Positions 1,955-64,000 of a DNA stretch of 64,000 nt are shown piece by piece. Source of the DNA: Marsupella aquatica (lineage: Eukaryota; Plantae; Marchantiophyta); the NCBI GenBank assembly GCA_973895155.1, contig OZ316893.1, positions 10,111,660 through 10,175,659 of the forward strand, written 5' to 3'. Within the stretch, counting starts at the first letter, position 1; each line of letters starts with the position of its first letter. Both the position numbers and the translations under genes were made by a program. The notes under the pieces are model-generated. The model was not told the DNA's origin. It made no database searches and worked only from the letters and a program-made list of their open reading frames with translations.

Positions 1955-2074
1955 GTTCCCAACGACCAAATCTGCCCGCAGTCGACTCATCGGACACGTT
2001 GAAGCACTAAGTCCCCACAAAAATCCGTTAAGATTTTTGGATTCCGACTCGGCCCGGTGTCTATGCCAGCAATC

Positions 2075-2086
2075 GCTCTGATACCA
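2075..2086 (-). other. Primer binding site, tRNA-iMet type
   Basis: GCTCTGATACCA on + reads TGGTATCAGAGC on -, the canonical plant Met-tRNA PBS; it lies 4 nt from a TG at 2091. Confidence 0.9.
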
Positions 2087-2090
2087 CAAG

Positions 2091-7221: not shown

Positions 7222-8093
7222 TCTAAAACTGTAATACTGAATCCCGCCTATTTGTGACCTTCGTCCCGTTACGATAATGTTTTTCGTGTCTTAGTTTTCT
7301 TTCAACTGCGCGATCTCCAAAATGAACCCCGGCTGGACAAAAGCCTGTCGTGCCTCCCACGCGATGAAAATGGACTTTATGCACTTTGTTTTTGCACTCT
7401 TTATTGGTGGCTGCAAACACTGCTCCATTAAACAATAGATCTGTAAGTGCAAAATCCTCTACAAGAGCATATACAGTTATGAATAAGAGCGTAAACTCCC
7501 ATGTGGAACTCTTATGGATAAGTGCATATTACTTTAGGTATCTAGAAAAGTTTGGTTTACTGGGCATTGCGTGCTGTGATGCCCCCAAAGATAGTATCTT
7601 AAATATATCGTCTTTGGATTTTCTCAATTCTTACTACCTAAGAAGGCCACCGTGTTGTGTCAACTTACGAGAACCTCTTAAATTGTATTGTAGAAGAAAA
7701 AGTGAAGTCCAGTTGGCCCCTAAAAGATCACTTTGCATTGAGGCAATATAGACATGAGTTGGTTGTTGGTAGCCACGTTTATTGCTCACCAAATTACCTT
7801 ATTCAATGTTATATACCTTGCCAAAAGTGATATTTTGACATCTTTTTCTCAGCTTGACATCTTTTACCTCCTCGACATGATGTTCTCTCCTTACCTTCTT
7901 TTTCTCCTCAACATCTTTTTTCACCTTGACTTTTTTTCCTCACCTCAACATCTTTTTCTCTCCTTGACATCTCTTTCCTCCTCGACTTCTTTTCGTCACC
8001 TCAACATCTTTTTCTCTCCTCGACATCTCTTTTCACCTTGACATCTTTTCCTTGCATTGACATCCTTTGTGCAATGCACAGGCCTCTGGCTAG
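7222..8093 (+). mobile_element. Non-autonomous Helitron
   Basis: 5' end A|TCTAAAACTGTAAT at 7221/7222. 3' end has a short palindrome TGTGCAATGCACA (8068-8080) followed by CTAG|T (8090-8094). Inserted between A and T with no TSD, as expected for Helitrons. Confidence 0.65.
7834..8063 (+). repeat. Degenerate pyrimidine-rich minisatellite (about 20-bp unit, CTTGACATCTTTTTCTC-like) inside the Helitron
   Basis: Repeated (C/T)T(C/T)GACATCTTTT motif visible across the interval. Confidence 0.8.
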
Positions 8094-8733: not shown

Positions 8734-8977
8734 GCGGTACCGCCATGTTGATGCCATTTTGACTCCATGTGTGAGGATACACTAAATCTCCCAAGCCCAG
8801 GTGTACACAGAGAGGAGTGGAGGTATATGCTTGATGGACCCCCAAAATGAAGCGGTACCTCCATGTTGATGCCATTTTGACTCCATGTGTGAGGATACAC
8901 TAAAATCTCCCAAGACCAGGTGTACACAGAGAGGAGTGGAGGTATATGCTTGATGGACCCTCAAAATGAAGCGTTAC
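8734..8977 (+). repeat. Near-identical tandem duplication, 118-119 bp unit, 2 copies
   Basis: GCGGTACC.CCATGTTGATGCCATTTTGACTCC...CAAAATGAA begins at 8734 and 8852; a third unit starts at 8971. Confidence 0.92.
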
Positions 8978-21876: not shown

Positions 21877-24349
21877 CCTGGACACTCGCTATATCCCTGC
21901 GCGTCTTCCTCCCTTCCCCAATAAAATCACCTCAGAAGCACTTGTCGCTTGTACTGAGTACGTTGAGCTTAAGAAAAATTGCCTGTAATGCTCCAGCTCG
22001 AAAGTTCAAAGCAGCACCAGCCGCCTTCGCATGTTTTCTCCCCACCCTGTTCAGAAGCCACAACTCGGGCGAAATTGACAAGCCCTGGGATCATTAGGAA
22101 CCATCCCATGCTGCTTTGACTGATCGAGTCAGGTTCCGTGCCCAATTACGTCCTACAGTAGTGAGTCCTCGGAATCCACATGAGGAAGGCAGAGAGGCCC
22201 TACTCCTACACAATCCATAGCAGGCGGTCAGACATTTCAGCTCGCTCAAGAATGTGTAGTACTCCCACCGAGAGGAAGCGAGAATGCCCACAAGAGCCCT
22301 CTCAAGCGCTGAGCATCTCAATTACGAGAGAGGAAGAGGAGAGCTCGAGGGCAGAAACTAGTCTGCAGCAGCACAGGTGATGCGGCACGCACTGTACCGG
22401 CGTAGTAGAAGGAGCAGCAGCTGCGAGCTGAGCCATCATGTGCGAGGCATACACAAATACAGACACGATCGACTCTCTGTCAAGAACCCCACAGGGAGTA
22501 ATCAATTGCGCCTAGCGGGGGTGGGCATGGAATTAAGGAAAGGACGGAGAGAGACACACCGCGAGAGAGTGAGATCCGGAAGCAGCCACTGCACTGCTCA
22601 ACGAGAGCTAAAACTGGAAGAACCCCGGGAGCAACAGTGCACAGCCCCACGAGCAGCGCTACAGCAGTGCAGGAATTGCGACGGAATTGCGAGAAACACC
22701 CCACCGCTCCAGCGAAGCAGAGGAAAATATCACGCGTGCCGGAGTCTCCTCCATCGCCTGATCAGAGGGAGAAGGAGCACAACGAGCAGCAGAATCGGAG
22801 CTTGATCAAAGGCGAGAAATGCTTACGAAGCGTAAATGCCTGATCATCCGAAGGGAGCAATTCCTGTCGTCCTTCACATCATTCTGAGAATCTGGGTGAA
22901 TAAAGAGCGCCACATGCAGTCAAGCTGAACACATCACAGAATCTGAGAGCACCAGCAGCAGGACCGCACTCACCGCAGAAGCTGCATCAAGGAGCTGAAC
23001 ATGTGCACGAGAGAATGAATGCACCCCAACAGATTATACTCCGCACTCTTCTCAGAATCCGCTCGTGTTTCCCCACATTCCCGCGGTTCTGTCTTTTACT
23101 CCGCTGAATCACTCCTTCAATAGAGGTGTGAATTCCATCCCCATGACCCCACCCCATAGCACGCCCATTGGTGCCTTTTCATTTTTACTAGCCCAAGTAT
23201 TCATATGAAATTCATATTTTGTCATACTATAATATCCAATTCCGCCAAAGTTTGTCCATCATCCACTTACAAAAATAGTTCTGAGCGGGAATGATCAGCA
23301 ACCGTTGATTTTTTTGCATTTTTTCCCTAATTACTCAATGCTAAAAGGAGACCCTTGAATGCAAAAAGAGGTGAGACAGGGGTACTCCATCCTCATGTTG
23401 GGCCTGAGACAGGGGTATGCCCCACTGCCCACTAGTACCTGGCAAGGGTAAAAAAGTCACTCAGAAGAAAATGAACAGACCCCTGGCCCAAAAACTCTCC
23501 CACCTAGTCAGGCCATGAAACCCTGAAAAGCCATGACAAAGTAGCTCTTGCAGTGTCCCAGATTGGCTTAATTCTATTCTTCATACACATAGCCTTCGCC
23601 AAAATGTAAATGAAAAATCCTGCACATGCTAGAGCTAACTAGAGACCTGCATATTATGTGCATATGCAGGTAGACAGGGTATGGTAGACTATAATATCCC
23701 AGAAAGGGATAGTAACCAACCTTAACGGCCTACATAGAGAGCATACTTTGATTACAAATTATGTATAGACTTTGACTCCCCATACATCTCCCTACAAATA
23801 AACATACTCTAAATATCAAAAAATTATGCTACCCAAGGAAAGAAATCAGGGCATGGATTCACTCGATCCATTAAGTCTTGAACTTAGACTTCATTTGCAA
23901 ACTAGAGTTTAGCTACTTCCAGAAAATGACAATGGCAAAGGGCCAGGATGAAAACTTGCCAGACTCCCCTTGTAACTGAAACGTGTCACTGTGCCTGTGA
24001 GACATTTTGCCTTCAAATTCAGAAACATAGGACAAGTATCACAGTTTGCAACCCACCCACGGCTCCCACATACATCCCTGGCGCTTCGGACTAGTCGCCA
24101 GATAGGATGGTCTTAATCACGCGATGTGGATGGATGGAGGGTAGGGATTGACCCTACAGTTGCGTACAAGATAGAGTGGCTGAGCTCGGATTGCGAGTAC
24201 CTGTCAATCACATCAAAACACCACGACGAGCGATGAACGACTTGGCGAGATCGACGCTCAGACGTGCGCGTTGCTATTTTAGATGGGAAGGCTCAAGTAC
24301 AAGGACGAACGGATGGGGACTTGAACGCGATGGAAGAACGGCATGACGA

Positions 24350-27879: not shown

Positions 27880-28460
27880 TCTTTGAACAGTAATTTGAGG
27901 ATTCCACTGCGACGACGTTTCATTCTTCAAAAAGGTCTGCTGAATCAAACGGTCATTTGGGGATTCCACTGCAACGACAATTATTCTCTCTCTTCTAGTT
28001 TCTGAAGTGTGAGTGTTTGCAGAAGGTCAAACGAGGCTCCAAAAAAGCAATTGCGTTCATTATTCAAAAATACTTCTGCATAAAGCAAACAGTAATCTGG
28101 AGATTCCACGCCAACAATAATCTGGAGATTCCACTCGAACTACAATAGTTCTCTCTCGTTTCGCTTCTGCCAAGTGCTTCTGTGTCAATAGAAGTTTAAA
28201 CACCAGGCTCCAACAACAAGCAAAGATCATTCTTCAGAAATACTTCTGCATAAAGCAAACAGTAATTTGGAGATTCCGCTCCACAACACTAATTCCATCT
28301 CTTTTCGCTTCCCATTATTAAGTTGCATTGCCTTTGGCACCATGTCTCCAGCCTCCAGGTTTAGCCTTTTGGCCTTTTTGTTCTCTGGCACTTTGAATAT
28401 ATAACTTTTCGCTTCCGCCAATTGTTTTGTTTGCAGAAGTTCAACCACCAGGCTCCTGAC
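27880..28460 (+). repeat. Degenerate tandem repeat (about 170-bp period)
   Basis: Recurring motifs AACAGTAAT(T/C)TGGAGATTCC, AAATACTTCTGCATAAAGCAAACAG (about 28068 and 28238) and AGAAG.T.AA...AGGCTCC. Confidence 0.7.
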
Positions 28461-44249: not shown

Positions 44250-47200
44250 ATGCACCGAGCCAATAAGGCCCCGTCTTTACTCCGCGCCGGATATGCTGCA
44301 GCATCACATGGTATGCGAGCTGCTGCTGCTCCAGGTTCTGATACCACTGCGTTAGGCTCGACACTCATCTCCCGAGCATCTTCTCGCTTCAACAGATGCG
44401 CGGCGGTCATCGTTCGTGCGCCTGAGTCGTCGGCTACGAGATTAGGCTCTCGGTTTCTGAGTACGATTGCCTCCAATTCGATTCCTAGAGCAGGAGGATC
44501 TGGTTATTCGGTGCTTCTCTCCGGCTCGACGAGCGGTGTTGCTGCACGGGGGCCTATTATTGCTTCGGGAGCTCTCCTCACCTCTAGACCGTCCAGGACA
44601 TACGCCAGCATGGGTACTGAACAGCTTCTTTCTTTCCTTTCCCTTCCTTCCGGCGGGGATGAGTCTCGTTAGCAGTAGTGGATCATCTGACTGTCAATAT
44701 TGAGATTGCTGCATAGCAATTGTGAGTTTCTCGGCCCGCCGGACCCCGTGTGAGGTCGCTTGCAGACGCATGTGGCAGTGCTTGCGGCCAAAGTGGCTGC
44801 TCTGCTTCGTTAGTGATAGGTCGTGGAAAACCGTCCTTTTTCTTCTGATGGCAATCAGACGGGAATTGGTGAGCTTTGTCGAATTAACCTGATTCCCGCC
44901 TCATTACCCTCATCGGCATTCATAGATGCATCTGGCGGTGCTGACGATCGAAGTGGCTGTTCCGCGTTGACGTTGCGGCCGAGAGAAAGCTGTGCTTACT
45001 CTGAGCACGTAATTCAGCCAGGGACTGGAAAGATTGGTTGAATCGTGCATGGAGTTTACAGGTGCATGTGGCATTGTAGACCTAAGCGGCTATTCTGCTT
45101 CATGGTGTTTAGGCGTGGAAAACTGTGCTCACGCTTGATGGCAATCGGATGGTAATTGGGCAGTTCTGTTGATTCTGACCTGAAGCAATCCTGTCTGGTT
45201 ACCCTCATCGCATTGATCTGACATTCATCCACGTTGGCATGTTGAGGGGCTAGCTGTTGATTGGAGGGTTCGTATAAAACTATCGTTTGGATGGATGGGG
45301 AAAGTTCGGCCGTGACTGCGATAAGAGATCCTTGGCCTTGTCGTGCATACGTGGATTTCTCCGATGCCTTCTGGCGAAAATGCGTATTTTTTCTAGTTTT
45401 CGGAGGTCTCTGTGCACAATTTCTCTTCGCCCAGTATTTTGTTTCTGAAATATTGGAGGATTTGGTGTTGCAGCTGAGGCCAATCCATTTAAAAAGGTCT
45501 TGACTGACCTGCCCAAGCCTGGCGGAGGATCGTATGGAAAATATTACAGTCTTCCGAAACTGAACGATGAGAGAATTGGTAAGTTTGATCTCTATTTTGT
45601 AATCACGGAGGAGCGGTGTCGGGTATTGAGGATATTTCTGGCCTTCTTTCTCATTTTAATGACAAGAGTATCGGTGAATGTCTATACTTCACCACCTGAA
45701 ACTAAATTATTGCGGTTTCCGTGACCGTAGATAAGCTGCCATACTCCATAAGAATTCTCCTGGAGTCAGCTGTCAGGAACTGTGACAACTTTTCAGTTTC
45801 GGACAAAGATGTGGAGAAAATTATCGATTGGGAAAAGAGTTCTCCCCAGCAAGTGGAAATTCCCTTCAAACCAGCTCGTGTCATTCTCCAGGTATTTGTG
45901 ATCATTCGTATCCTCGCATTCTCTTGTGTGTACTCATGGAAAGGTAGGTTTTTGGTAGCGTTTCTCTATTGAGGAAATCTCGATCTATTTCGTGTTCCTC
46001 AGCGGAAGGTTGAAATGGTGTCTTGGATTTTTTATTGTCGTTCAGGATTTCACCGGAGTTCCAGCTGTTGTAGATCTTGCTGCGATGCGAGATGCCATGA
46101 AGAGACTGGGCGGTGATCCTCAAAAGATCAATCCTTTGGTGAGCATTTAGATTGTTGTCTGCAATACAAGTCTAGATTCCGAGCGAATCGGAAAGGAGAA
46201 CAGCTGGGAGGAAAAGTTGATGGCTCGTTAACACTGTTGAAGCGGTAGGAAAAACATTCTCAAAGAGAAGTGTATTTCTGGGATTCATTGCGTAATAATC
46301 CCAATTTTGTCTTCGGGGTTGTTTATATCTTGAATGCTTTTAATACTGTGCCAGAACCGCTAGCATTCATCACGAACGACATGAGAGTGGACCATGAAAC
46401 GTTTGAAATTGGGAATGCAGGTTCCAGTGGATCTCGTGGTCGATCATTCCGTCCAAGTCGATGTTACCCGTACCCCTGACGCACTCCAGGCCAACATGGA
46501 GCACGAATTCGGTCGCAATAAAGAACGATTTGCCTTCTTGAAGTGGGGGGCGACAGCTTTCGAGAATATGCTTGTTGTCCCTCCAGGCTCTGGTATTGTG
46601 CATCAGGTTGGTTGCTTTCTTCAGAGGTCTGGTTCTGTCGATTACAGTCCGGTTTTCTTTTGGTTTTGAAATATTAGGGTGAATAGGATATCTGATGAGA
46701 CTCTCCTTTGTGTGCAGGTCAACTTGGAGTATCTGGCACGTTTAGTGTTTAACAGCTCTGGGATCCTCTATCCAGACAGCGTAGTTGGAACAGATTCCCA
46801 CACCACTATGATCGATGGTCTTGGTGTTGCTGGATGGGGAGTTGGTGGTATTGAAGCCGAGGCATCTATGCTTGGGCAGGTCAGTGAGCTGGCGTCCTTG
46901 TACAAATCTTGACTATCCTTGTCATTTGCTGTGATGTAGGTCTTCAAAGAAGATCCGGTGTTCGGAGGACACTGACTGAGTCTGCCTTTCCAACTTGAAT
47001 CTGGTCTCGAGTCTCTTTAAATTGACGAAATGTTGAGTGACAAGATTTGCTATGGTGGTCATGATTACACAGCCCATGAGCATGGTACTTCCTGGGGTGG
47101 TGGGATTCAAGTTGACGGGCAAACTAGAGCCTGGAGTCACGGCAACAGATTTGGTGCTCACTGTCACTCAAATGCTGAGGAAGCATGGAGTGGTTGGGAA

Positions 47201-50200
47201 GTTTGTGGAGTTTTATGGTGAGTTACTCGGTCATCTTTTGTCATATACCAATTATGGAGACCCCCATCTCGTGTTACATGTCCCATTTCTGATTCTGAAT
47301 TGATCACCGTCTGCAGGGAGTGGTATGGGGAACCTGTCCCTTGCTGATCGTGCGACCATCGCCAATATGTCTCCTGAGTACGGTGCTACCATGGGGTTTT
47401 TCCCTGTTGATGATGTCACCCTAGATTATTTGCGTCTCACGGGTCGCGACGAAGAAAAGGTGTTCTCTAATTTAGTCATCTTGATGTGTGCCTAGTCTTC
47501 ATACTTCTTGTGTGTCTGTTGTTGTGGTGGTGGTGGGGGGGGAGGGGGGGGGGGTGGGGCGCTGGTGGCGCGGGTTGCTGGATGAAGTTTAGCAACTCTA
47601 TGGAACTTTGACTGGTGTTTGGTTGGATCTCATAATGTTTACTTAAGAAGAGGACAGCTTTTGTTAACTGTTTCCTATATGAATTCATCGGCAGAATGCG
47701 AAATTGTCGCCTTCCGCGTCGTCAGAAATGATATGATCATCAGGCACGAGTTTCACCGCCTGAGTACATTAAGTAGCACTGCCACTCATCGTCAAATGTC
47801 TGGTTGGATATCTCAGGTGAACCTGATTGAAGCATATCTGCGAGCCAACAATATGTTCATTGATCACAGTCAGGTAAAGTCCCATTGCTAGTGTAGGCGT
47901 ACAACAATTTGTTGTTATTTCAGGGCCCTGATTTTGTCTGGGATGTTTTCCCGAGAGGAACTAATTTGGGAAATATGTCAATGCAGCCTACCGAAGAAAA
48001 TGTGTATACCTCGTATTTGTCTCTGGATCTTTCGACAGTTGTGCCTTGTGTCTCCGGCCCCAAACGGTGAGGCATTTCTAGTTCATGTTTACCAGGATTA
48101 TAAGTACACGTGTGAATGAGGAGCGTCTTTTTCAGATGTGGGCTTGCCCTTGTTGCAAATGTAGATGCGAATTGGTTTATGATGAATAGTTTCGATACCA
48201 ATTGCTAATATTATGATTTGCAGGCCCCATGACCGGGTGGCTTTGAAGGAGATGAAGAAGGATTGGCAGGCTTGCTTGGACAATAAAGTTGGCTTCAAGG
48301 TATGGATGTACATGATTCCGTAATCTATCCTATTAATTTCTCCCTGTTTTATAGTTTGTGAATGGTGTTGACTACTTGGAGCTTCCAACTGTGATCGGTA
48401 ACGTGTGCAGCTGGTATCTATTATCCATTCCATTTGGCCTGTATACTGTCTTGACATGGACACATGTGAAACAATGGATTTTAGGGTTTTGCCATTCCCA
48501 AAGAGGAGCAGGGCACTGTTGCGAAGTTCGACTTCGATGGCGTGCCTGCAGAGCTTCGGCATGGTGATGTTGTAATTGCTGCTATCACTAGTTGCACGAA
48601 TACATCCAATCCAACTGTAATGCTGGGTGCGGGCTTGGTAGCAAAAAAGGCAACTGAGTTGGGCTTACAAGTAATCTTCCTACTCTTGTGCAGAGAAGTT
48701 TCATTTGTTGAGTTTAAGGAATCTGAATTTTGCTTTTCTAGAGTCCTGGTGAATAATTTCCCTTACTGCTATTCTCCCCTGATCCCAAGGGAGTTACTGA
48801 ACTACGGGAGACGGAGTTAAAAAATGCGACTCCTTGGGTTGATGATAGCGATGAATGTTTTATTCATTGTTTATTAATTATGGGAATTTGACAGCACGGT
48901 GCCTTGGTTCTTTGTGGTTAAATTCTGGCAGGTGAAACCTTGGATAAAGACAAGTCTCGCTCCAGGTTCTGGTGTCGTCACCCGGTATCTGGAAGACAGG
49001 TCGAAACACATAACTTTTGTCATTCGCGTATATAAGAGTACAGTGTCTCATTAGGCCAGCTGTAATGATCAAAGGTACTCAAATACGTAAATTTTAATCC
49101 CTGACACGATGGAGGCAACAGATTGTTGTATTAGTCTCCCCCATAGTTTTAATCCCTGACACGGTGGAGGCAACAGATTGTTGTATGAGTCTCCCCCATA
49201 GTTGAATACGTGACGGCCAGGCATTCGAAGTCATGCCGAGGTGAATCATTATGGGAGCGATCTCTGTAAAGTACTAGAAAGGAAGAGCAATTGCATCCGA
49301 AAACTGTTAAATTGAAAATTCAGGGAAGGGACGAAATTGTGTGACCATTGCATATTATTGTCACTTTTTGTTGAAGTGCTATTTTGTTGAAGGGGTGATC
49401 TATATCTTGTATGGTGGGCTGTTATCTGTGTGCAGTGGTTTGAATAAGTACCTCGACAAACAAGGCTTTAGTTTGGTGGGTTATGGGTGCACCACATGCA
49501 TAGGAAATTCCGGCGAGCTTCACGAGGCTGTGTCCGCTGCAATTGTTGACAATGGTACAGCAGTACTCATCATTTTACTCACTGTAGATTTGATAGTTGA
49601 TTGAGCGTTGTGCACTTCAAGTGTGCGAATGCTTGTGTCTGCCTCTTTTCGAAATTATGTCGTCTCCTGTAGCAGCCAGATGGGCACTTGAACGGGGTCT
49701 GCAGGACGGACTTGCATGGGGCTGAATAACTCAATTGGTGATGGAATTCCGTGAATCAGATGTTGTCGCTGGGGCAATTCTGTCGGGCAATCGTAATTTT
49801 GAGGGTCGTGTGCATCCTCTGACACGTGCGAACTACTTGGCTTCTCCTCCGCTGGTTGTGGCTTATGCCTTGGCTGGAACAGTGAGTATCAGCTTAGGCT
49901 GGCCCTTTTTGTGCTCATTCTTTTAGATGAAAATTGTGTGCCCGGTTTCAGAGACTAGATGAAATATTTGTAGATACTTCGGTTGTCAAAATCACCCTCT
50001 TTTGTATTTGATATTGAGTAATCAACTGAGTCCTTCTCGTGATATGAACAGCTCAACATCGATTTTGAAAAGGAACCGATTGGCATTGGCAAAAGTGGAA
50101 AGCCAGTTTTCCTTCGTGACATCTGGCCTAGTACGGAGGACATAGCGAAGGTTTGGTCATGATATAGTTTATTACCTCCTATACACAACAGTGAACTTTG

Positions 50201-51945
50201 AATTGAAAGGCTACTTCATGTCAATGGAATGGTAGCTTTTATAGTTCTGGCACGTTTGCGTTCGTTTGCTCTCCTTCCATATTGTGAATGTCTGGTTTTT
50301 GTGTTCGCATTTTTTGCCAGGTTGAACAAGAGTCAGTTCTTCCTGACATGTTTAAAGCAACCTACAAGACTATCACCGGCGGGAATGAGATGTGGAACAG
50401 ACTTACTGCTCCAGAAGGTTCTCTCTATGCCTGGGATCCAAAATCTACCTATGTGCATGATCCTCCCTACTTTAAGAGTATGACAGCCACCCCACCAGGC
50501 GGAACCACTGTTAAGGATGCCTACTGTCTCCTCAATTTCGGTGACAGTATAACCACGGACCACATCTCTCCAGCTGGTAATATTGCCAAGGAGAGTCCAG
50601 CTGCCAAGTTTTTGATGTCCTTAGGAGTTGATCGCAAGGACTTCAATTCTTACGGAAGTCGGAGGGGGAATGATCTTATAATGGCCAGGGGCACTTTTGC
50701 TAATGTTCGCATAGTGAACAAGTTCCTTAAAGGAGAAGTGGGGCCAAAAACCCTCCATGTTCCTAGCGGCGAGAAAGTGTCCATATATGATGCGGCTAAG
50801 GTACTTGACACATGACAATCTCTGTATCAGTGTTGCTCGAGTCGGTACCTTTTTGTCTTTTGTTTTGTGAGCTAGTTGCAGTCTCTTTGATAGAAGCTAA
50901 ATTTATAACTATATAATCGCAATAGGAAGCCACTCTCAGGGCCTACTACCTAGAGTGAAGCCTCTAGACCGTGACTCTGGGGCATAACTGAAAGTTTGAG
51001 CGCAGGCAGAAAACAGGGATGACCGTGGGGGCAAGTCACTGATGAAAGTGAAACAGTAGGGAGTCTTCTTTTTTTTGCAAGATCTGTGTTTTGTCCTGAC
51101 TTCTATTACGTCCAAAGAACAGGCGGTCAGGCTAGCAAGCACTTAATTTGTGACTTGAATATAGTCCTGCTTGGGAACATTCTGACTTTGCTCGACGTCG
51201 TACAGAAATATCAAGATGAGGGTGTTCCGACGATAATTATTGCTGGAGCAGAGTATGGCAGTGGAAGTTCTCGTGACTGGGCAGCTAAAGGTCCAGCACT
51301 TCTGGTAAGCCAGCTGTTCGATGATCTAGTTGTTCAAAACGGAGCTATAACCCTTGCCTGGCTGTTTTTCTGTAGATGCAAAGTGGGTCTTTTGTTCCTG
51401 CTTTGAGCCCGGACTTTCTGTTGGATGCTTTAATGATCTCGAATATCATCAACATTCAGGGTGTGAAAGCAGTCATCACCAAGAGCTTTGAGCGAATTCA
51501 CCGCAGCAATCTTGTGGGGATGGGAATCATTCCTTTATGCTTCAAGTCAGGAGAAGATGCAGAGTCACTAGGTCTTACCGGATATGAGCGATACACCGTT
51601 CACCTTCCAACAGACACTGAGAAGATCAGACCTGGTCAGGATGTGGAAGTCACTACAGACGATGGGAAGAAGTTCATTACCACTCTGCGTTTTGACACAG
51701 AGGTACTGCATCTCACTATATTTGGATTGTCCCCGATATGGTCCGGATTCAAAAAAAAAAGATCCAGTTGGTTGTGCAATTCCTGATTCCTCTAGCGGGG
51801 ATCCAAGGACTTTTTCAAAGACATTTATTCTCGAATGTGTTACTTACGAAACTGGATGGCGTGGTTAATTGTTCAGGTCGAGTTGACTTACTACAAGCAT
51901 GGGGGCATTCTCCACTACGTTCTGAGGCAGCTTCTGCACAATTAA
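44250..51945 (+). CDS. ACO: Aconitate hydratase (plant AcnA/IRP-type) with N-terminal transit peptide, 20 exons
   Basis: Exons about 44250-44613, 45474-45578, 45731-45891, 46046-46138, 46421-46606, 46718-46879, 47073-47217, 47317-47459, 47817-47873, 47987-48066, 48224-48299, 48485-48670, 48932-48999, 49436-49554, 49760-49881, 50052-50150, 50321-50800, 51206-51304, 51460-51702 and 51877-51945. Motifs: [74 protein letters not shown]. Confidence 0.97.
49092..49203 (+). repeat. 55-bp tandem duplication in an aconitase intron
   Basis: TTTTAATCCCTGACACG.TGGAGGCAACAGATTGTTGTAT.AGTCTCCCCCATAG at 49092 and 49147. Confidence 0.9.
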
Positions 51946-54000: not shown

Positions 54001-57000
54001 CATACCCTGACGTGAACAGCTGGTGATGAAGTTTGGCAGGGCTGAGAAATTCATTTTGGCGCTCTGGCTATTAGCCTCATTGTGCACACAGCCTGGAAAG
54101 CATGTGCGGATGCAAGCTTCCTGAGTGTACAAATCATAAATGGGAGCAGACTTTGATTTTCACCAGTTTTGCCAGCACCAGGCCTATTACAAGCTGCTCG
54201 TACTGTCTGTGTCGATTTTCATAACGCATCCACTAGTTCCTTGAGAGTACCTGTGGTTCTCAAGCTACTGTCTGCCTTCCTGGGTGAGGACAAAGACACC
54301 ACCACAGAACTGCAAATTGGCGCATCACGACCACCTTACTCTGGTCAAGGCTCCTCTCAATGTCTTATGATTGTACAAGTTTAGCTGGACATGGCTTTAG
54401 TCCTCTATTTGAGATGATTCAATTGTCTTTTTGTTGGTTCTCTCAAGATTTCAGGAGAATGAAACGTCAGCTTTTATCTATTCTATTGTTTCCTTTCTGC
54501 CTTTTGAGTCCATCACAAATGCTCTCATTGTTGACCATTATGTAAGATAGAACTTCCATGTTTTGAGGACCTCTTCATCCAAGATAACGATCGATGATGT
54601 AGTGAATGGAAACAGGTCATTTCAGGTCACCTAAGCTGCTGGTGAGGTGAGTGGACATGTTGTACTAATTCTTGTGTTGTAAGAACCATACTCACCTACA
54701 TGTAATATTAGTTGCTTGTAAAAACAATACTCGAAGTATAGACATATACCATGCTCCTTCTTGAACATGAAACTTACTCTCTGATTGATCGAGTGATTGT
54801 CTAGGTGGATTCAGGGGTTGTGTGCAAAGCTTAGATGGACTGGCAAAGCTCCTATGTACTTCTCACATTGTCAAAACAAACTTGGATAGTATCGTTTTAC
54901 ACTTAGTCTCAAATATGACCTGTAAACATTCTGTTGATTGTTTGTAGCCTCTTTCACTTAGTTTACCCTATGTTTTGTATCATGTGCACAAACACAACTT
55001 TGTATACTAATACTTTAATATATTAATACATATATTAATATTTTGATAGATTACAGTGGCAATCCTTATTAACCCAAAATTGGATAGGAAAGGGCGGTCT
55101 TGAGGAGGCTCTCGACAAGGAATTAGGAGTTAACTTCAGGGGTCCTTAATCTGAAATGATTTTTAATGAAGTAGATAGCCTTTGCTAGTAGCCTTGATCT
55201 ATGGTTGCTAGTAGCTATGTTCCCAGTGGCAAGTTCATTATTGTACACAACTAAGTTTTTATGGATAACAAAGGGAATTTTAATGTCTTCCAAAACTAAC
55301 GATAAGAGGTACTATGGAGGGGGGCGTTCACACGTGTACCCCTTTATTTTCCAAAAGGCTGGGGGCCAGAGCCAGAGCCTACTCCAGCATTTGAGTGGGG
55401 GATTAAACAACATGAGTGCCATACGAATGCATCTACAGGATAGGGGAATGCAATCCCACCTTTGGCTCACAGCACACTGTCTAGAGCAGGGCAAACGTGT
55501 CACTGAAATACCAAGCACCCTATTGATGCACACATAGAGAATGGCAAATTTAATTTTGTCCAGATTCAGTTCACTCCCATCATCCAACCATAGATCATGC
55601 TAGTGCATTCAAGTGTCATGTGAAGCATCAGACAGGCTTGCATTTGGTAGTACAAAACCCATGATAATTATGTGATGATGCGACAAATCTTCCCTTGAGT
55701 CTTAAATAGGGGTTTGATACAAGATTCTGTGAGTAAGGTGAGAACACATCTTAGTGACTGATCAGTTTTCTAGAATATGACTGTGCAAAGGTGTGGGTGT
55801 TACTCGTAAAGCTTGACATGTGAAGGCAAAGCCCCCTTTGGCAGTCCCTAGTTATAATTTGAATAATGACCAACTGCAAATAGTTCTGGCAGATGAACTA
55901 AACTGTTTGGTAATTAATGTGGCCAACACCCGGGCCAACATAGTACAAAGCTAGGAACAATGGAGCAAGTAGAAATTTTGTGAAGACTTTTTTAATGCCA
56001 AACAGACTGAATTGATTCATGCCACACAGACTCATTTGAATGATTAAAATGCTATAAGGAGAGATCATGTATAATTTTATTTCCAAATTGGAACCCCATG
56101 CCTTTCCTTGTCATGCCGAGGGACAGTGCCTCTTATGCACATCGGCATGTCCCTCGCCTGCCCACTAGGTATGTAGTTAGGGCTAGTGTACTACCTGAGT
56201 TAACGACATGTTCTTGTAGCAAGTCTGGGCCGTTCTTGAAGCAAATGTGCTTGTTAGTGTGACGCCAGGACTTTGCTTGCTTAGGGCATGTCTTTCTTTG
56301 TGGGTTTTCAGTTCTTCTTGAATCGCTATTGACAGAGCTCAGACAGTGCTCGTCGGTTCCGTACACGGGATTCACACAGTGATTCGTTAGATGCTCCCGG
56401 CCGATCTTGGCATCCTGCCGGTTTTCGATTCGATTTCAGTACAATTGTTTCTCTTACGCCTTTTATTCAAGAAGAACTGTCGAGTTAGCGGTGACGGGAA
56501 GAAGATTGCTCATGGCGATTTCGACAATTTTTGATGAAGCCATTGCAATTTCTTTGACAAACATTGGAGCGACGGAATGAAAGTTATGGGTTTATGTGGT
56601 TATGTGTATACTTAAGTGTATACACATATCCATGCTTCCGAAGGGGTCAGGAGTTCCTTTTCCGGTTGCATCCGCGACTCCTTTGCTGCTTCCGACTGTC
56701 ACTGCCGTTTGCCGCACGACCACCTCCCGACTGCAACCCGTGGTTTGTAGGCCGCTGGCCCTTCACATTCCGGCCACAACCTGCTGCTGCCGACGTTGCA
56801 TCAACCGTTGCCTCGACTGCTTTTGGGGCCGTTTTGTGTTTGTTGCCACTTTTCGGCCACGGCTGCCGTTGAGCCCGTTTTGTTGCCTCGCGACGCCCTG
56901 CACAGGCCGTGCATAGGGCACCATGCCCTTGCCTCGGCTGTATCTCCCTTTACCGGCCGTAGTCCCTCCTCAATCCGGGATGTTTCTTCCCTTTTTCGGC

Positions 57001-57983
57001 ATTTTCTCGCTCGTTTTTCCTGCCTCGACTCCCTTTCTTTTTGCCCTGCCATAAGCAAGCGAGAGGACAGAGGGCACGAAGCCCTATGGAGAAATAAAGC
57101 ATGGGGGAAGGGGAGCCGAGCACAAGGCAGCGCGAGTGTGCCAGGAGAGGGCACGAAGCCCTATGCTGCAGTAAAGAAGGAGGGGGAGCGAGGGTGCCAG
57201 GAGAGGGCACAAGGCCCTAAGCAACATTGAAGTAGGGGAGGGGAGTACACTCGACTCCCTTGCCTTCGGGCATACTGTCACCAGGGCACGAGGCCCTATG
57301 GAGTAATTAAAGTAGGGAGGGGGAGGAGTACACTTGACTCCTCACACGGGAGTCTTTTGCCAGGGCACGAGGCCCAAATTGCATTGAAGGAGAGGAGGGG
57401 GGGAGTTCGTAGCCCCTTTTCGGGAGCACATAAGGTGGGGCACGAAGCCCTATGGAGGGCTCATGCCATTAAGAGGGCCCCATTTTTTTTGCCCTGCCTC
57501 GCGATGTCTTTTCTCCTCTTTCCGGCCACCTGCGAGCTTGCCTCGGCTATTTTCCCCTTTTTCGGCCTTTCTCACTTTTTCGCTGTGCGACGATCGACCT
57601 GCTGCCAGTTCCCGGGTCCACATCGGGGCCCGATGTATACACTTAACCGGGCCCCATGTTTATACATTTGAAAAGGCCGATGTATACACTTAAGGGGGGC
57701 CCAGGTTTACATTTTTAAGGGCCCATTTTTCTGGATTTCTTTGCTGCCGCCACGTGTCATCTGCATAAAGCTGAGGGCCGGCATATTCATCAGACAGTCA
57801 ATCCAGCAAGCACAACACCAGTCCAATTGGAGTTTTTAAGGGTCTTTTCTTTGCCGACGGTTTTTCTGTGTGTTTACACATTCGACACATTTCTGCCTCG
57901 CACTGTTTATTTCCTAGCCTTGGGGCTGTCATTTCTTTTTCTTGTCAGTTTCTTTCCCATTGGCACCCAGGTGAGCATGCAGC

Positions 57984-59249
57984 ATGTCAGCCGACGCGCC
58001 AGGTGGTAGCAGCACATCGCCACCGACACCCAGGTACCATTTACGGAGTGATCCACGACCATTGGTGCCAATTTCATTGGAGTCTCGACAATTTCGACGA
58101 CGTCCACAGACAGCAGCAGCACCCACACCACGCAATCCTTCTACTCCATTTGGCGGTCGCTTGACCACTACTCCCAAGCCTGCTATCACTTCATTGCCAT
58201 TTACCCCTTCTGCATCAGTGGTTGTTCTTGCTTCATCGACATACAGCATGGATGCCAGCCACTCATCTGGCCGCATTGAGCGCTTCAGCGGGCGGCCAGG
58301 CACTGTCTCTTTACGTGAGTTCAAATCCACTTTCTACACTGTCGTTTACGAATTGGAGCTGAAGTACGGCAGCAATTTCACAAATGCATTTGCATTTAAG
58401 CAGCTAGCCAAGTATGTGCACCATGAGGCTTTGGATGTGTATGAGCAGCATTCTCAACGGCTGCTTGCTGTCACACAGTTGCCTAACCCTACCTATGCCA
58501 ATGCAATTGCGGCAGCCTCACAATTGGCCTTACAGAATGCCATTGCAGCCCATGCTGCTGCTCCTGCCACTTCCCCTCCTACTCCAGTTCCCACCACTGC
58601 GCCAGTTACTCCCACTATCTTGGCACAGGCTACATCAGGCATTTCTCCCACCATTGATTCTCCTGCCTTCGTTGATCCAGTGGCTGAGTTTTTCCAGGTT
58701 CTTGAATTGGAATTCCCAATCAAGAGTGCTGATAAAATCATGCAGTTGGCCACCTTTGTGAGGCAGCGCGATGAAACATTGAAGATGATGTATCGCCGGC
58801 TTCTCAACCTGAAGGAGGACACCCAGAGCATCACTGACTTGGAAGTTGCTCATCGCTATCTTCACGCATTGGAGGGCACACCAGCTCTCCATTCGCAAGT
58901 GTTGCAACAAGTATTCTCAGAGTTTGGAGACAGTTACACCTTGCTCAATGTCTATGACACTGCTGAGAAACTTGAGTTGGCCCATGCACATTATGAGGCC
59001 AGTATTGCACGTCCACCGCGATCCAGGTACCAGGTTGCTGCCCCTACACTGGTCACTCCTCCCTGTGTGCCACAGTATGGTTCCAAGACCAAGCCAGCAC
59101 ATGCTGCTTTCATGCTGCCATCTTGCAACTACTGTGGTAATCCTAATCACAAGGCTAATGAATGTGATATTGTTGCTGAGGACCTATCTTGTGATTTTTG
59201 TGGGAAAGTGGGCCACTTGGAGGCAGTCTGTTTTGCCAAATTCCCCTAG
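57984..59249 (+). CDS. gag: Gag with two CCHC zinc knuckles
   Basis: IERFSGRPG...LREF gag-like start; zinc knuckles CNYCGNPNHKANEC and CDFCGKVGHLEAVC at 59124-59231. Confidence 0.85.
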   Translation: MSADAPGGSSTSPPTPRYHLRSDPRPLVPISLESRQFRRRPQTAAAPTPRNPSTPFGGRLTTTPKPAITSLPFTPSASVVVLASSTYSMDASHSSGRIERFSGRPGTVSLREFKSTFYTVVYELELKYGSNFTNAFAFKQLAKYVHHEALDVYEQHSQRLLAVTQLPNPTYANAIAAASQLALQNAIAAHAAAPATSPPTPVPTTAPVTPTILAQATSGISPTIDSPAFVDPVAEFFQVLELEFPIKSADKIMQLATFVRQRDETLKMMYRRLLNLKEDTQSITDLEVAHRYLHALEGTPALHSQVLQQVFSEFGDSYTLLNVYDTAEKLELAHAHYEASIARPPRSRYQVAAPTLVTPPCVPQYGSKTKPAHAAFMLPSCNYCGNPNHKANECDIVAEDLSCDFCGKVGHLEAVCFAKFP

Positions 59250-60389
59250 AGGAAGCAGCTACGACAGCAGGCCACTCATCTTGCTCCTGTTTCCACTCCC
59301 CCACCAGCTAGGAGGGCTCCTACTGCATCCACTGCTCCTCCTTCCAGTGGCAAAGCACCCGGTGCTAACAAATTGCCCAAGCAGCCACAGAAGCAACCAC
59401 CTCAGAAGGAGGCTCACAACGCACAGGCAACTCAACTCCAGTCTCTGACTCATGAGGTTGAGTTCTTACGTGCCCAACTTGCCAACATCAAAGGCAAGTC
59501 CACTGCCTCTGCTGGTCCTTCTCAACCGGCTGGTCACGTGCAACCCATCCCTGGCCCAGGCACCGCTGACAATTCAGCACCTCTACCCCGCTCTTTCTAT
59601 GGCTTACCATTTGATGCTCATATGGGTGAGTGTGTGTTGTCCTCTGCTCCACAGCCTAGCCTTACAGCAGAACTTTCAGATTCATTCTGCCCTTCCTATT
59701 TTGCTTACCAGCAGGCCAGTGCTGCCTCCCGTATTGCTCCCACACGCCGCATTGTACAGGCTGATGGTCTTGCTGCCGGTCCTCTGACTAGAGCCAGGGG
59801 CGCTCGGGCTATCATGCCCCAATCTTTTCAGCCACTCACACTTGCTGAAGAGCGCACCTTGTTGGCGAGGGGGGAGGGAGCTACAGCTACATCCATTCCA
59901 CCACCAGGTGCTGCTGACATTTCACAGGGAGTTGTTTCTCCTGAGCTGCTTGAGCATTTCATCTCCGGTATGGCACAAAGGATTCTTACAACTCCACTTT
60001 TTAGTTGCCATGATTTACAGTTGGATGCTAGAGCTGTCATCAGAGCGCTAGAGGGCTCACTGCATTCTTCATCAGCCCCTGTGACACCGGTTTTGGAGGT
60101 CCAATCTCATATACATACTGGACCTTTTTCTTCTCCTTTACATGTTTCCACTGGTTTGGCTGCCCCAGTACCGATTGCTGCTGATTGTGTGACCAGAGCT
60201 ACACTTGATTCTGGTCATGCTGCTCCATCTTTCCTGGCTATGTTGTTGAGTGGAAAGACCGTGGACACTAACTCCCTTCACAAGGTACCTCATCATTTGC
60301 CAAAAGTGGTGCCTAGTGACAGGACTTTAGTTTCCACCACCATTGCCATTGTTGACAATAGGAATTCAGCAGTCAAGTTGGAGGGTCAC

Positions 60390-60700
60390 ACTCCTCAGGT
60401 GGTCATGCTAGACACAGGTGCTCAACCAGTGATATTGGGCATTCAGTTTGCCAAGAAGATGGGACTGTTGACTGATCATTTACATCAATCCAGGTGGCAC
60501 ATTCGGACTGCTAGTGGCACTGTGGAGGATGTGCTGGGTGAAAGTTCTACTTTACTCACTCTCACTTTTAATGGAGGTACAGATCAGGAATTGCATTTCC
60601 TAGTCAGATGTTTGGTTACCAATGCCACTACGGATGATGTGCTCATTGGCCAGGAGGCTTTGTTCCCACCAGGTTTTACCATTGACAATTGGCATGAGCA
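60390..60700 (+). other. Retropepsin-type aspartic protease domain
   Basis: VMLDTGAQPVILG (DTG at 60411-60419), IRTASG and DVLIG. Confidence 0.85.
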
Positions 60701-61076
60701 TGCATACTATAGAGTTGATTGGCATACGGATGGCTCACACTTGGGCTACATTCCACTTGATTTGCATGGTGCCCACACACCTATGGCTCACCACTGTGTG
60801 TTGAAAGTAGTGCACACAGCTACCTATGTCAACCACCCATTGCAGGATTGGATTGAGGAGGATGATGATGAGGTGGCTACTGCACATGCTGTTGCACCTA
60901 TAGTAGCACTTTCCAGCCACGTGGATCATCAACCAGAGGTGGTACAACGGCTCCAAGTAGCCCATGGACCTTTGGTGGCTGCATTGCGCAAATTTGAGGA
61001 TCTAGGGCAGCACAATGGCCAACCAATAGCCCCAATCTTGAGCGCACCAGTTACATGGACTCCTCCTTCAGATGGC

Positions 61077-62015
61077 CTTACATTGCTTGAGCTTTTTGGT
61101 GGCATTTCTACAGGCCTGGAAGCTCTCCTAAAGTCTGGCATGGTGGTGAAGTAGTACATCTATGTGGATATTGATCCAGGTGCAAGGCAAGTGGCTGAAT
61201 CCCGTCTGCTGGAATTTTCAGAGCGATTTTCCCAGCAGTTTCCACATAGTGCATGGAAGTCTGCATTTTCTTTCTTCCCTCCAGATATCCAGCTTGTCCA
61301 GCACCGGCACTTAACTCTTCTTGGCTCCCTTGATTTGATCATAGCTGGTTGGGAATGCCAAGGGTTTTCAGCTGCTGGTCACGGTGCTGGACTGCATGAT
61401 TCTCGTTCTGGCCTTTTCACAGCATTGGTTCAGATTCTCACCTGGGCTCAATCCCTTTATCCTGCTGTTGGTTATATCATTGAGAATACTCCATCTCAGT
61501 TTGACCAGCGTCCACAGGTCAAAGAGGATTTCAGTGTGGTCCAGCACTACTTGGGACCACCCCTTCTCATTGATGCAGTGCACTGTGGTTCTTATGCACA
61601 TCGTCTTCGTAACTTTTGGACTAACCTTGCACCACCTTCCTTGCTGGAGATGGCTCTTCACCACACATCCAGGGACACTAACCTTACAGTGGACCAGATT
61701 TTGGATCCTGGCAGTTCTTGCCAACCAGTTACACGGCAAGAGCCAGCACCTTGGTATCCAGGCAATACCATTGGACAACCCCGTGCTGCTTGGCCTACAT
61801 TTGTGTCCTTTCCAGTTGCACATGCTTTTCAGGGTGATGGTCCTGGTCTGGTTTATCGACATTCTACCGGTACATGGGATGAACCTAGTCCTGAGGAGAG
61901 AGAACGGGCTATGGGCTTCCAACCCGGTACTACAGGTCACACCAAAATCACCAGGCTGGCCAGGAATGCTTTACTTGGCAGGGTAATGGATCTCAATGCT
62001 CTCACTTGGCTTCTA
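61077..62015 (+). other. C5 cytosine DNA methyltransferase domain
   Basis: Motif I LLELFGGISTG; II YVDID; III DIQ; IV DLIIAGWECQGFSAAG (Cys codon 61356-61358); VI YIIENT; VIII AHRLRNFWTNL; IX EERERAMGFQPG; X RNALLGRVMD. One TAG at 61152 lies between motifs I and II. Confidence 0.9.
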
Positions 62016-62483
62016 GTCACTTGCATCCTTTTTCAGATGTACATTCCTCCAGCATTAGGAGCTCCAGCCTTACCACTCCACAGTGCTGCTGCATGGCATC
62101 CAGACCAGGTGCACTTACCTCTGTCCAACACTCACCACTTCAGTCCAAGTATTGGGGGGGAGGAGGTCCCTTGTAATGCGGCTGACATTATTTCTGAGTT
62201 TCATGGTGTGGACCACTTCGGATCAGCAGGTACAACAGGCCTTGGAGAGGCCTCATCACCTTATCAGCAACATGCTAGCAGCTTGGACAGTGGAGAGGCT
62301 GGCACTTCTGGCTCTTCAAGTATGAGTACATCAGGTCCTATTCCTAGTGTTGCCAACTACACATTTATCATGGGCAACCACCTGAGTAAAAGACAGAAGG
62401 ACCAGCTGCTGAATTTGCTCCTCAAGCATGAGAATGTGTTTGCTTTCTCTATGAAGGACTTGGGTAAGTGCAAGACCATGTAG

Positions 62484-63770
62484 TTCTCCATTGAGTTGGC
62501 TGATGAAACACCTATCTTCAGGCGGAGACATCGTTTGAGTAAGCATGAGTGGCAGCTGGTGGATGAGAGGTGCCAAGAGTTATATGAAGCTGGTCTTATT
62601 CAGCCATCTACATCAGATTTTGCAGCAACTACAGTGATGCCAGCAAAGAAGGATTCCAGTGGATTGTGGACAGAGAAGCGCATGTGTGGGGACTACAGGC
62701 CACTGAACTTGGTCACACCCCAGGACAGGTACCCCATGCCACGGCCAGAGGAGCTATTTGACAGCATTGGAGACTCAGACATCTTCACTCTTGTGGATCT
62801 AAGGCAAGGCTTTAACCAGATTTTGCTGCTTGCAAAGGATCGCAAGAAAACAGCTTTCCATGGTAGTAACCAACTATGGGGGTGGTTGGTGATGCCATTT
62901 GGTTTGAAGAATGCGCCCATATTCTTTCAAAGAGTCATGGACCAGGTTCTTCAAGGTGCTGAGTTTCTGAAATGCTACATTGATGATGTGTTGGTCCACA
63001 GCAAAGGATTTGACCAACATCTACTTGACCTTGAGGAGCTATTCATGAGGCTTAAGAAGGTGAACCTGAAGATACACCCCAAGAAGTGTGAATTCGCTGT
63101 CAGATCAGTAGTATACCTTGGGCACCGCATTCTTCCAAATGGAACCATGGCTCATTGGGCCAAAGTGGTATCCATCCTGGAAATGCCCACTCCTACTGAT
63201 GTTCACACTCTTAGGAGCTTTATTGGGTTGTGCAATTACTACCGGATCTACATCAAAGATTTCAGTACCATTGCACATCCATTGTACTCTTTGTTGAAAA
63301 AGAATGTGACTTGGACATGGAGTACAGATGCTGAGGCAGCATTTGTCACTTTGAAGGAGAAGCTCTCAGAATACCCGGTGCTGAGAAGACCTGATTTCAG
63401 CAAGGTCTTTGTGCTACACACAGATTGGAGTGCCCTTGGGATTGGTGCCATTCTGGACCAGCATGATGAGGAAGGTAAAGAGTACGTCATTGCCTATGCA
63501 TCCAGGAGCAACAATCAGGCAGAGAGTCATTATTCTTCTTATGAGGGTGAATGCCTTGCTGTTGTGTGGGTTGTCATACATTACAGGCCCTACCTCTATG
63601 GGACCAGGTTTGTTCTCTACACCAACCACCAGCCCTTGAAGTGGTTGATGACCAACGACAAGCTTACTGGCAAGCTTGCTCGTTGGGCGCTCATACTCCA
63701 GGAGTATGATTTTGAGGTAATTCATAGGCCTGGTGTGACACATCAAAATGCTGACACTATGTCCCGTAGC
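62484..63770 (+). other. pol: Reverse transcriptase and RNase H domains (Ty3/Gypsy type)
   Basis: RT: RMCGDYRPLN, DLRQGFNQI, KTAF, MPFGLKNAP, YIDD (62976-62987), YLGH, RSFIGLCNYYR. RNase H: LHTDWS, YEGECLAVV, YTNHQPL, ARWALILQEYDF, NADTMSR. Confidence 0.95.
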
Positions 63771-64000
63771 CCTTTGATTGCCTCTGATGATTCCTCAGAT
63801 GCACGGCAGGATTTTGACCAGGTTTCCATCCTGCCTACATTTCATGCATCGACCTATCTTGCTTTGCTGCCATGCTATGTTGTTGACCAACCTGTGGTGG
63901 ACATATGGGAGGACAGCGACACTCTGAGATTTCTGCAGCATGGGGAGTACCCCACACATATTACTGCTGCCCAGAGAGACCGAATTCAGCAAAGGTCCAA

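Follow-up and report, generated by a model that had tools for sequence, protein, structure and literature searches.

A stop-broken Ty3/gypsy-type retrotransposon copy with a DNMT3-like cytosine methyltransferase domain in a liverwort

Does a land-plant retrotransposon encode a cytosine DNA methyltransferase of its own and, if so, what would the enzyme do for the element? The question is raised by the right-hand end of a 64,000-nucleotide stretch of contig OZ316893.1 (positions 10,111,660 to 10,175,659; the whole stretch is called the window below), where a preliminary description had placed a complete C5 methyltransferase within the single gag-pol frame of a Gypsy element. We find that the element is a Ty3/gypsy-type retrotransposon copy, broken by stop codons, in a liverwort. 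The explanation that best covers the data as a whole, and that we consider likely, is a stop-broken copy of the KnitGypsy-Dnmt3 lineage, an active copy of which would prime its own reverse transcription, integrate via internal repeat junctions and methylate its complementary DNA (cDNA). Coordinates are collected in Table 1, and papers are cited for those of their passages that bear on this family.

Translation and comparison with Pfam confirmed that a single gag-pol frame holds the methyltransferase between protease and reverse transcriptase (RT). The domains follow one another as zinc knuckle (a weak match), protease, DNA_methylase, RT and RNase H, a Gypsy-type order, and the PF00145 match exceeds its cut-off, which removes the objection that there might be no such domain. 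Three TAG stops interrupt the frame, at codons 422, 1057 and 1500 (read as X in the translation). They are not a family trait, since stop-free relatives read through all three regions. Because one stop lies inside the methyltransferase, the window copy cannot make the enzyme and is dead. The domain is therefore complete in that its motifs stand in order and its catalytic cysteine is present, but the stop after motif I breaks it. The element also starts about 1.9 kb earlier than first thought, at 56109 rather than 57984. The order protease-RT-RNase H-integrase can be followed in the window as far as RNase H, with integrase next in sister locus L004, and among PDB entries the family profile matches Ty3 Gag-Pol best. 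An integrase and a PHD finger would be expected past position 64000, by analogy with L004, the only sister locus in which they are seen. Depth of sequencing reads is very high over the element and low over the flank, a figure that gives no copy number and is compatible with a high-copy family.

Read directly, the methyltransferase motifs occur in unpermuted order, LELFGG, GWECQG, IENT, RLRNFW, ERERAMGF and RNALLGR, which we take to be motifs I, IV, VI, VIII, IX and X. Compared with PDB sequences, the window domain matches DNMT3A best (E 1.8e-7), with DNMT3B, M.HhaI and 4onq ranking lower, and a family profile of the methyltransferase matches DNMT3 at E 7e-24. The fold was predicted, from a 65-sequence alignment, for the naturally open domain of L004 (71-72% identical) and not for the window's own; the model has a predicted local distance difference test score (pLDDT) of 95.7, and all Foldseek matches listed are DNMT3A, DNMT3B or DNMT3C, with template modelling (TM) scores of up to 0.85 on the target. 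The domain is thus DNMT3-like by sequence and, in the sister copy, by predicted fold. Host DNMT3 proteins (human DNMT3A/B/C; moss DNMT3, PMC6453930) give the best sequence and fold matches; the window domain differs from them in its low identity (about 21%), its want of companion domains and introns, and its position inside a polyprotein.

Relatives were sought in metagenome contigs, where 257 of 305 candidate stretches encode them. Eighty of these, chosen on the methyltransferase domain, were fetched and make up our set of sister loci, which we call moss-type because a Sphagnum compactum protein nests among them. All 80 bear the domain, as they were selected to do, and every locus with a protease or RT on the same strand shows the domain order of the window. 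L004 encodes a DDE integrase (rve) followed by a PHD finger, with no chromo match, and the integrase is also found in three stop-free polyproteins of 2138-2240 amino acids (aa; P0189, P0350 and P0475). Further afield, 215 clusters (50% identity) score E up to 1e-30, and named relatives come from Marchantia polymorpha, S. compactum, S. balticum, Closterium, Klebsormidium nitens, Haematococcus, Monoraphidium and Scenedesmus. Viral contigs gave one pattern match and no relatives; the ESM Atlas gave DNA_methylase clusters without taxa.

Of 81 aligned sister segments, 80 have the catalytic cysteine and 75 have Glu before it; the ENT, RLR and FGG motifs are mostly retained as well. The cysteine is kept across the 50%-identity clusters whether Pro or Glu precedes it: Pro-Cys is found in the Marchantia and K. 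nitens relatives, and 130 new cluster representatives divide into 49 with WEC and 36 with WPC, a split that makes Glu-Cys a family variant. The ratio of nonsynonymous to synonymous substitution rates (dN/dS) of the methyltransferase is 0.07-0.09 against five sister loci, comparable to gag and protease, and 0.10-0.39 among six pairs of decayed loci, values that are rough because dS is near saturation. To judge by these ratios, the methyltransferase is under purifying selection. None of the 57 single-frame fetched loci is stop-free across the whole methyltransferase span, a stretch that takes in some linker residues; within the domain proper, L004 has no stop.

The lineage in which the window element very probably belongs is KnitGypsy-Dnmt3, described in K. 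nitens (PMC5890265). Its link to Klebsormidium elements, suggested at the outset, is supported by an alignment in which the window is colinear with K. nitens GAQ93235.1 across protease and methyltransferase (585 aa, 30% identity, E 3e-61; the gag match is weak), a protein that we infer from its domains to be a KnitGypsy-Dnmt3 copy. Both have an unpermuted DNMT3-type domain in an intronless Gypsy Pol, DIRS-like repeats combined with Gypsy domains (Fig. 4c legend, PMC5890265; on the window's side, seen in sister loci) and signs of purifying selection (PMC5890265). They differ in host, an alga in one case and a land plant in the other, and in the residue before the catalytic cysteine, Pro in K. 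nitens and Glu in the window. In its passages on KnitGypsy-Dnmt3, PMC5890265 does not describe self-priming, target duplications, an internal CA-RY-TG junction or a PHD finger. The design, DIRS-like repeats included, is already published for K. nitens (PMC5890265), and the window element fits best into that Gypsy-DNMT3 lineage, as a member from a land plant.

All trees were quick ones and had no outgroup; one methyltransferase tree left out six near-duplicate proteins and matches of fewer than 160 aligned residues, and another used 36 chosen proteins plus the window. In the RT tree, which contains no Klebsormidium RT, the window groups with Closterium elements at 99% in the Shimodaira-Hasegawa-like approximate likelihood ratio test (SH-aLRT). 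Together with saturated synonymous sites against the moss-type copies, this grouping bears on whether the family persisted into land plants or re-entered them, two possibilities left side by side in the preliminary description: persistence fits better, re-entry less well. The same tree places two domain orders on opposite sides of one branch (99%). Members with streptophyte names have the methyltransferase between protease and RT, and those with chlorophyte names between RNase H and integrase. An RT-RNase H-methyltransferase-integrase-PHD architecture is seen in Haematococcus and Scenedesmus, and its RT-RNase H-methyltransferase part in Monoraphidium (P0022, P0355, P0059 and others). Among the 130 new representatives, the RT-first order is clear in 50 and probable in 19, and the protease-first order clear in 5 and probable in 7. 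The claim in PMC5890265 is of acquisition in the K. nitens lineage; its species table has Physcomitrella and neither Marchantia nor Sphagnum, and Marchantia goes unmentioned in those parts of its text that concern the family. The chlorophyte form may itself be in print, as PMC5890265 cites two earlier reports of a DNMT linked to an RT. Since chlorophyte relatives carry the same domain elsewhere in Pol, an account of acquisition in Klebsormidium is too narrow.

The host was placed by its aconitase gene, whose product is 92.8% identical to that of Calypogeia fissa, 84.1% to that of Marchantia paleacea and about 80% to those of mosses, and which falls in the liverwort clade at 99% SH-aLRT. Exons were joined with the Calypogeia protein as a guide; a single exon ranks the hosts alike (88% vs. 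77%). To go by this protein, the host is a liverwort, probably of the leafy type, which upholds the initial view of a land plant, probably a bryophyte, and disposes of the objection that it might be an alga. The element shows another affinity. Over 61074-63707, compared with L004, P0002 and P0254, Sphagnum-type copies are 71-77% identical in the methyltransferase and 86% in RT, and Marchantia copies 43%; host aconitase shows the reverse, being nearer to Marchantia than to mosses. An old transfer between moss and liverwort, or deep paralogous lineages, could explain the closeness of the Sphagnum-type copies. Recent horizontal transfer from a moss is rejected, given synonymous differences of about 0.7 per site.

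The element ends are not ordinary long terminal repeats (LTRs). Self-comparison of the sister loci revealed a repeat A of about 290-320 bases on the left and a B-A-B arrangement on the right, so that the paired LTRs expected initially give way to a split layout, A-coding-B-A-B. A 5′ A repeat was found in 28 of the 80 loci (21 distinct sites), preceded by B in none, and B-A-B 3′ ends in 18 (15 distinct sites), with a G-run (purine tract) directly before the first B. Sister elements begin with TG and end with CA. Six loci have both ends of a B-A-B element: four show exact 4-bp target duplications, one a duplication with one mismatch, and one none. The junction of the first B with the second A (B1/A2) reads ACA/ATA-RY-TRT in 14 of 14 examined (out of the 18 B-A-B loci), an internal junction of CA-RY-TG type, and the A2/B2 junction varies by 1-2 bases. 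In the window, repeat A is predicted to hold the promoter and the R/U5 part. Read depth jumps at its start, 56109, and a flank contig of run X3, a run that may derive from the source sample, matches exactly across the left flank and on into the element for 26 bases, ending at 56134; the 5′ junction is thus present in the reads. The 3′ end of the repeat was placed by analogy with sister A ends.

A shorter form, A-coding-B, occurs at 20 loci, with four exact duplications among the six that have both flanks and an intact B end. One site is represented twice, by L025 with B-A-B and by L040 with B only, so that A-coding-B can be explained by recombination or assembly collapse; these forms therefore cannot count as direct integration products. 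Units of A-B without adjacent coding sequence also occur (L053, 17994-18472; L073, 14583-15050, minus strand), the L053 unit having a 4-bp duplication, like a solo LTR.

Repeats of the same A-coding-B-A-B layout, and a DNMT3 domain in Pol, are described for SymbioDIRS-Dnmt3 of Symbiodinium (PMC5890265), an element that differs in having a tyrosine recombinase and a DIRS-type RT. The window family encodes a DDE integrase (rve) instead, and its insertions are flanked by 4-bp target duplications; these two features rule out membership of the DIRS/PAT/Ngaro tyrosine-recombinase group.

In the window, repeat A contains two arms that form a perfect 15-bp complement, the first about 200 bases into A and the second at its end. 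None of 100 shuffles reached 15 bp, the maximum being 10, and the pairing is present in both the minimum free energy and the centroid structures. Of 22 sister A repeats, 11 have a perfect complement of 13-16 bp, and in 20 no fewer than 13 of the 15 pairs form at the homologous position. The liverwort copy differs from moss-type copies at two positions on both arms, with pairing preserved by compensating changes. Arm 1 lies about 32 nt past the start of a TATAAAA box in the sisters; the window copy is without a clear TATA box. No tRNA primer site was recognised, in that no TGG start follows A in the sister loci listed, no tRNA library having been searched. This self-complementarity points strongly to self-priming of the kind known from Tf1, whose RNA uses its own 5′ end as primer. 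A long hairpin is also predicted at the start of repeat A, over some 50 bases, in liverwort and moss-type copies alike (window 56112-56156; L004 5547-5591), although the sequences differ after base 9.

How would such an element replicate? In the standard Ty3/gypsy scheme, the primer site and the purine tract bound the working LTR. In an active copy, the RNA would start inside A, and its first 12 or so bases would anneal to the primer-binding site that closes the repeat and prime synthesis from there. Plus-strand synthesis would start after the purine tract, so that the working LTR would be B+A and the cDNA BA-coding-BA. The integrase would then recognise the CA-RY-TG junction where B meets A, inside this LTR. 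The right end of the cDNA would gain a further B by end-to-end joining, either through a template jump of the RT or through ligation, giving the ragged A/B joint, and staggered cuts after each CA would yield A-coding-B-A-B with the usual integrase ends and two-base overhangs. We think it likely, from the layout of the sister copies, that the integrase cuts internal repeat junctions in this way; integrase cleavage of palindromic LTR-LTR junctions has a precedent in foamy virus (PMC1180852).

A ligated two-LTR circle with two identical B/A junctions could serve as an alternative substrate, since a circle of BA-coding-BA opened at the left B/A junction gives exactly A-coding-B-A-B, the ragged A/B joint resembles end-joining, and the foamy virus work is a precedent for this route too (PMC1180852). 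A plain circle should, however, yield A-B-A-coding-B half the time, and this form was seen at none of the 21 distinct 5′ ends, which favours rightward extension over an unmarked circle. An additional mark would be needed to choose the junction, possibly the element's own methylation at the CG-bearing CACGACA repeats at the B end. Circle and mark together would account for the joint presence of a methyltransferase and split repeats, both in this family and in SymbioDIRS-Dnmt3, but we regard this version as doubtful. Somewhat less probable still is the broad proposal that a lineage of integrase retrotransposons found throughout green plants (chlorophytes, charophytes, liverworts and mosses) moved its integrase site inside the LTR, each cycle requiring end-joined or circular cDNA opened internally, with the element's own DNMT3 marking the cDNA to choose the junction or to disguise the copy as a body-methylated gene.

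Where would the methyltransferase act? From its place between protease and RT, the enzyme would be expected to enter the particle on release and to act on cDNA, a model proposed for DIRS elements in PMC5890265. The protease would free it in the particle, and it would methylate CG sites in the body of the cDNA but not in promoter and leader; the methylated new copy would then resemble a body-methylated gene or be damped. The pol region of the window has a CG observed/expected ratio of 0.17-0.32 (four bins), compared to a median of 0.63 in 37 bins outside it, two of which are as low as 0.27. CHG is not depleted in pol, and repeat A and the leader are spared, with a CG ratio of 0.71 for 56467-57983. 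Across the window and seven sister loci, in both hosts, repeat A and leader keep their CGs (0.71-1.06) vs. a depleted pol (0.17-0.41). The SymbioDIRS-Dnmt3 domains methylated CG in yeast (PMC5890265). Catalytic self-methylation of the cDNA is, on these sequence patterns, about an even bet.

Several observations weigh against the explanation we prefer, in addition to the roughness of the dN/dS values. Flanks of the moss-type elements are as CG-poor as pol (0.14-0.40 vs. 0.27-0.41 in 7 loci), and host methylation alone can therefore explain the depletion. The K. nitens domain gave no methylation in yeast, a result that its authors call inconclusive (PMC5890265), and the window has Glu where DNMT3 enzymes usually have Pro before the catalytic cysteine. 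The B-A-B layout was seen in relatives that are 60-76% identical in the methyltransferase, the 3′ end of the window element lying beyond the window. B1 is no nearer to its own B2 than to the B of other copies, so that regeneration of B2 in each cycle does not follow. Taken as a whole, 56305-56500 folds no more stably than shuffled sequence does (z -0.48), only the 15-bp helix standing out. Lastly, in the methyltransferase trees, which contain no host DNMT3 outgroup, the deep branches, including that of the window with Klebsormidium, are unresolved, and the protease-first protein P0007 falls within the RT-first group in them.

Some of these points would also suit a domain that is not an active methyltransferase on cDNA and has been retained, along with the PHD finger, to bind DNA, protect cDNA or choose targets: Glu replaces Pro, the K. 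nitens domain was inactive in yeast (PMC5890265) and the CG depletion of moss-type copies is explained by the host. We think this unlikely given the near-universal cysteine, its persistence across the 50%-identity clusters, the largely conserved ENT, RLR and FGG motifs and a dN/dS below 0.1. It is more improbable again that the main targets of the enzyme lie in trans, in the host genome or in competing elements, with Marchantia-type families making it at Gag level. Several Marchantia gene models of 1278-1281 aa do comprise gag, protease and methyltransferase and share an end without RT, as do P0008 and P0050, but K. nitens has a land-plant-like methylome (PMC5890265), the window branch has the domain in the RT frame, and the ends of the Marchantia open reading frames may be gene-model artefacts. 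Models of this kind are annotated as hypothetical genes of M. polymorpha, Mp4g09160, MpVg00370, MpVg00540, Mp5g06330 and Mp5g06860 (P0005, P0190, P0191, P0197 and P0198 respectively), which encode 1278-1281 aa, are 95-97% identical, have intact motifs and a common end before RT, and lie in several cases on the V chromosome. In all, 18 M. polymorpha sequences in one 90% cluster are near-identical open gag-protease-methyltransferase gene models. Finally, the idea that a host DNMT3 gene was captured just once, or that the assembly is chimeric, has the weak single-sequence Pfam score as its sole point in favour and is practically untenable in view of the shared order in the fetched loci, all of which have the domain, the three stop-free polyproteins, the 215 clusters, the lack of introns and the 5′ junction in run X3.

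Other known systems share single features with the preferred reading of a self-priming, methyltransferase-bearing Gypsy element. Self-priming in preference to a tRNA is also predicted for Tf1/Sushi elements and the plant Tcn1 chromoviruses, the prediction covering the Tcn1 and TAR lineages, with Tcn1 found in mosses and club mosses (PMC6317226); these have ordinary LTRs and a chromodomain, whereas the L004 element ends in a PHD finger. The relevant passages of that survey mention neither PHD, methyltransferase nor Marchantia. Gypsy elements of Chlamydomonas with a PHD finger in Pol, Gypsy-7a_cRei and REM1, are known (PMC9940879, PMC6673714), no methyltransferase being among the domains listed there for Gypsy-7a_cRei. 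The DAM-LTR/EpiLTR elements (bioRxiv 10.64898/2026.05.21.726589) are likewise Ty3/gypsy with DNA methyltransferases, but of adenine type or with DNMT4-related domains; the passages concerned do not mention Marchantia or bryophytes and cite "streptophytes (Gypsy-DNMT3)" as already described. PMC12344493 similarly says "streptophytes", with no land-plant copies named in its passages on the subject. The pertinent parts of PMC6453930, PMC12885004, PMC9940879, PMC6673714 and PMC10952607 contain no such land-plant report, and our literature search, outside which lay Repbase, theses, subscription journals, the main supplement of PMC5890265 and the bioRxiv supplements, found none of the family in land plants.

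Table 1. Features of the element and of the host gene used for placement (window coordinates)
Feature	Position	Strand	Remarks
Host aconitase gene	44250..51942	+	Used to place the host
5′ terminal repeat A	56109..56466	+	Begins TGTCATGCC; first 9 bases identical to sister A start
Predicted transcript 5′ end and self-primer (arm 1)	56309..56323	+	Perfect 15-bp complement of 56465-56479
Predicted primer-binding site (arm 2), end of repeat A	56465..56479	+	Pairs with arm 1
Long 5′ leader, CG-rich	56480..57983	+	Short internal repeats 57048-57464 and 57630-57716; repeat families D3, D4, D13
gag-pol frame	57984..63998	+	2005 codons, no frameshift; open at window end
Gag and zinc-knuckle region	58248..59246	+	gag 72% identical to gag part of P0003
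CCHC zinc knuckle	59121-59168	+	zf-CCHC weak, 18.1 bits, under cut-off of 20.8 (Pfam)
In-frame stop 1, after zinc knuckles	59247..59249	+	P0003 (stop-free relative) reads through
Aspartic protease, LDTG	60372..60662	+	PF13975, 32.8 bits, E 1.1e-7
DNMT3-like C5 cytosine methyltransferase domain	61074..62039	+	PF00145, 28.8 bits, cut-off 22, E 1.1e-6
In-frame stop 2, within methyltransferase past motif I	61152..61154	+	Shared by 0 of 78 sister segments covering the column
Catalytic Cys codon of methyltransferase	61356-61358	+	In GWECQG
In-frame stop 3, directly before RT	62481..62483	+	P0002 reads through
Reverse transcriptase core, YIDD	62670..63131	+	RVT_1, 99 bits, E 3.2e-28
RNase H	63318..63707	+	PF17917, E 9.5e-37, also PF17919; RT_RNaseH 126 bits

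Elsewhere, the window contains a fragment of another Ty3-type element with a Ty3_capsid match (527-2137, minus strand), cut by the window start, and a decayed long interspersed nuclear element with RVT_1 and zf-RVT matches (3552-5798, plus strand). A 747-codon serine-rich frame without a Pfam match (19645-21888, minus strand) is probably a large exon of a plant gene, and short tandem and dispersed repeats cluster at 7838-8072, 8734-8977 and 27886-28288. Beside the sister element of L004 lies a host gene for a pentatricopeptide repeat protein of PPR-DYW (RNA-editing) type (17133-18521), consistent with a land-plant contig.

Retrotransposon-borne cytosine methyltransferases have been described only in algae that are awkward to work with. 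The open M. polymorpha gene models bring the question of their role into a genetic model plant, where the models could be miscounted as host DNMTs. Split repeats would evade software built to detect paired LTRs, a possible reason why surveys of bryophytes have left the family unreported. The repeat anatomy suggests an integrase element for which cutting at internal junctions is obligatory, a point relevant to the old debate on whether integration really uses circular or end-joined cDNA. The range of hosts, the alternative domain order of chlorophytes and the anatomy of the ends make the family worth following up in Marchantia.

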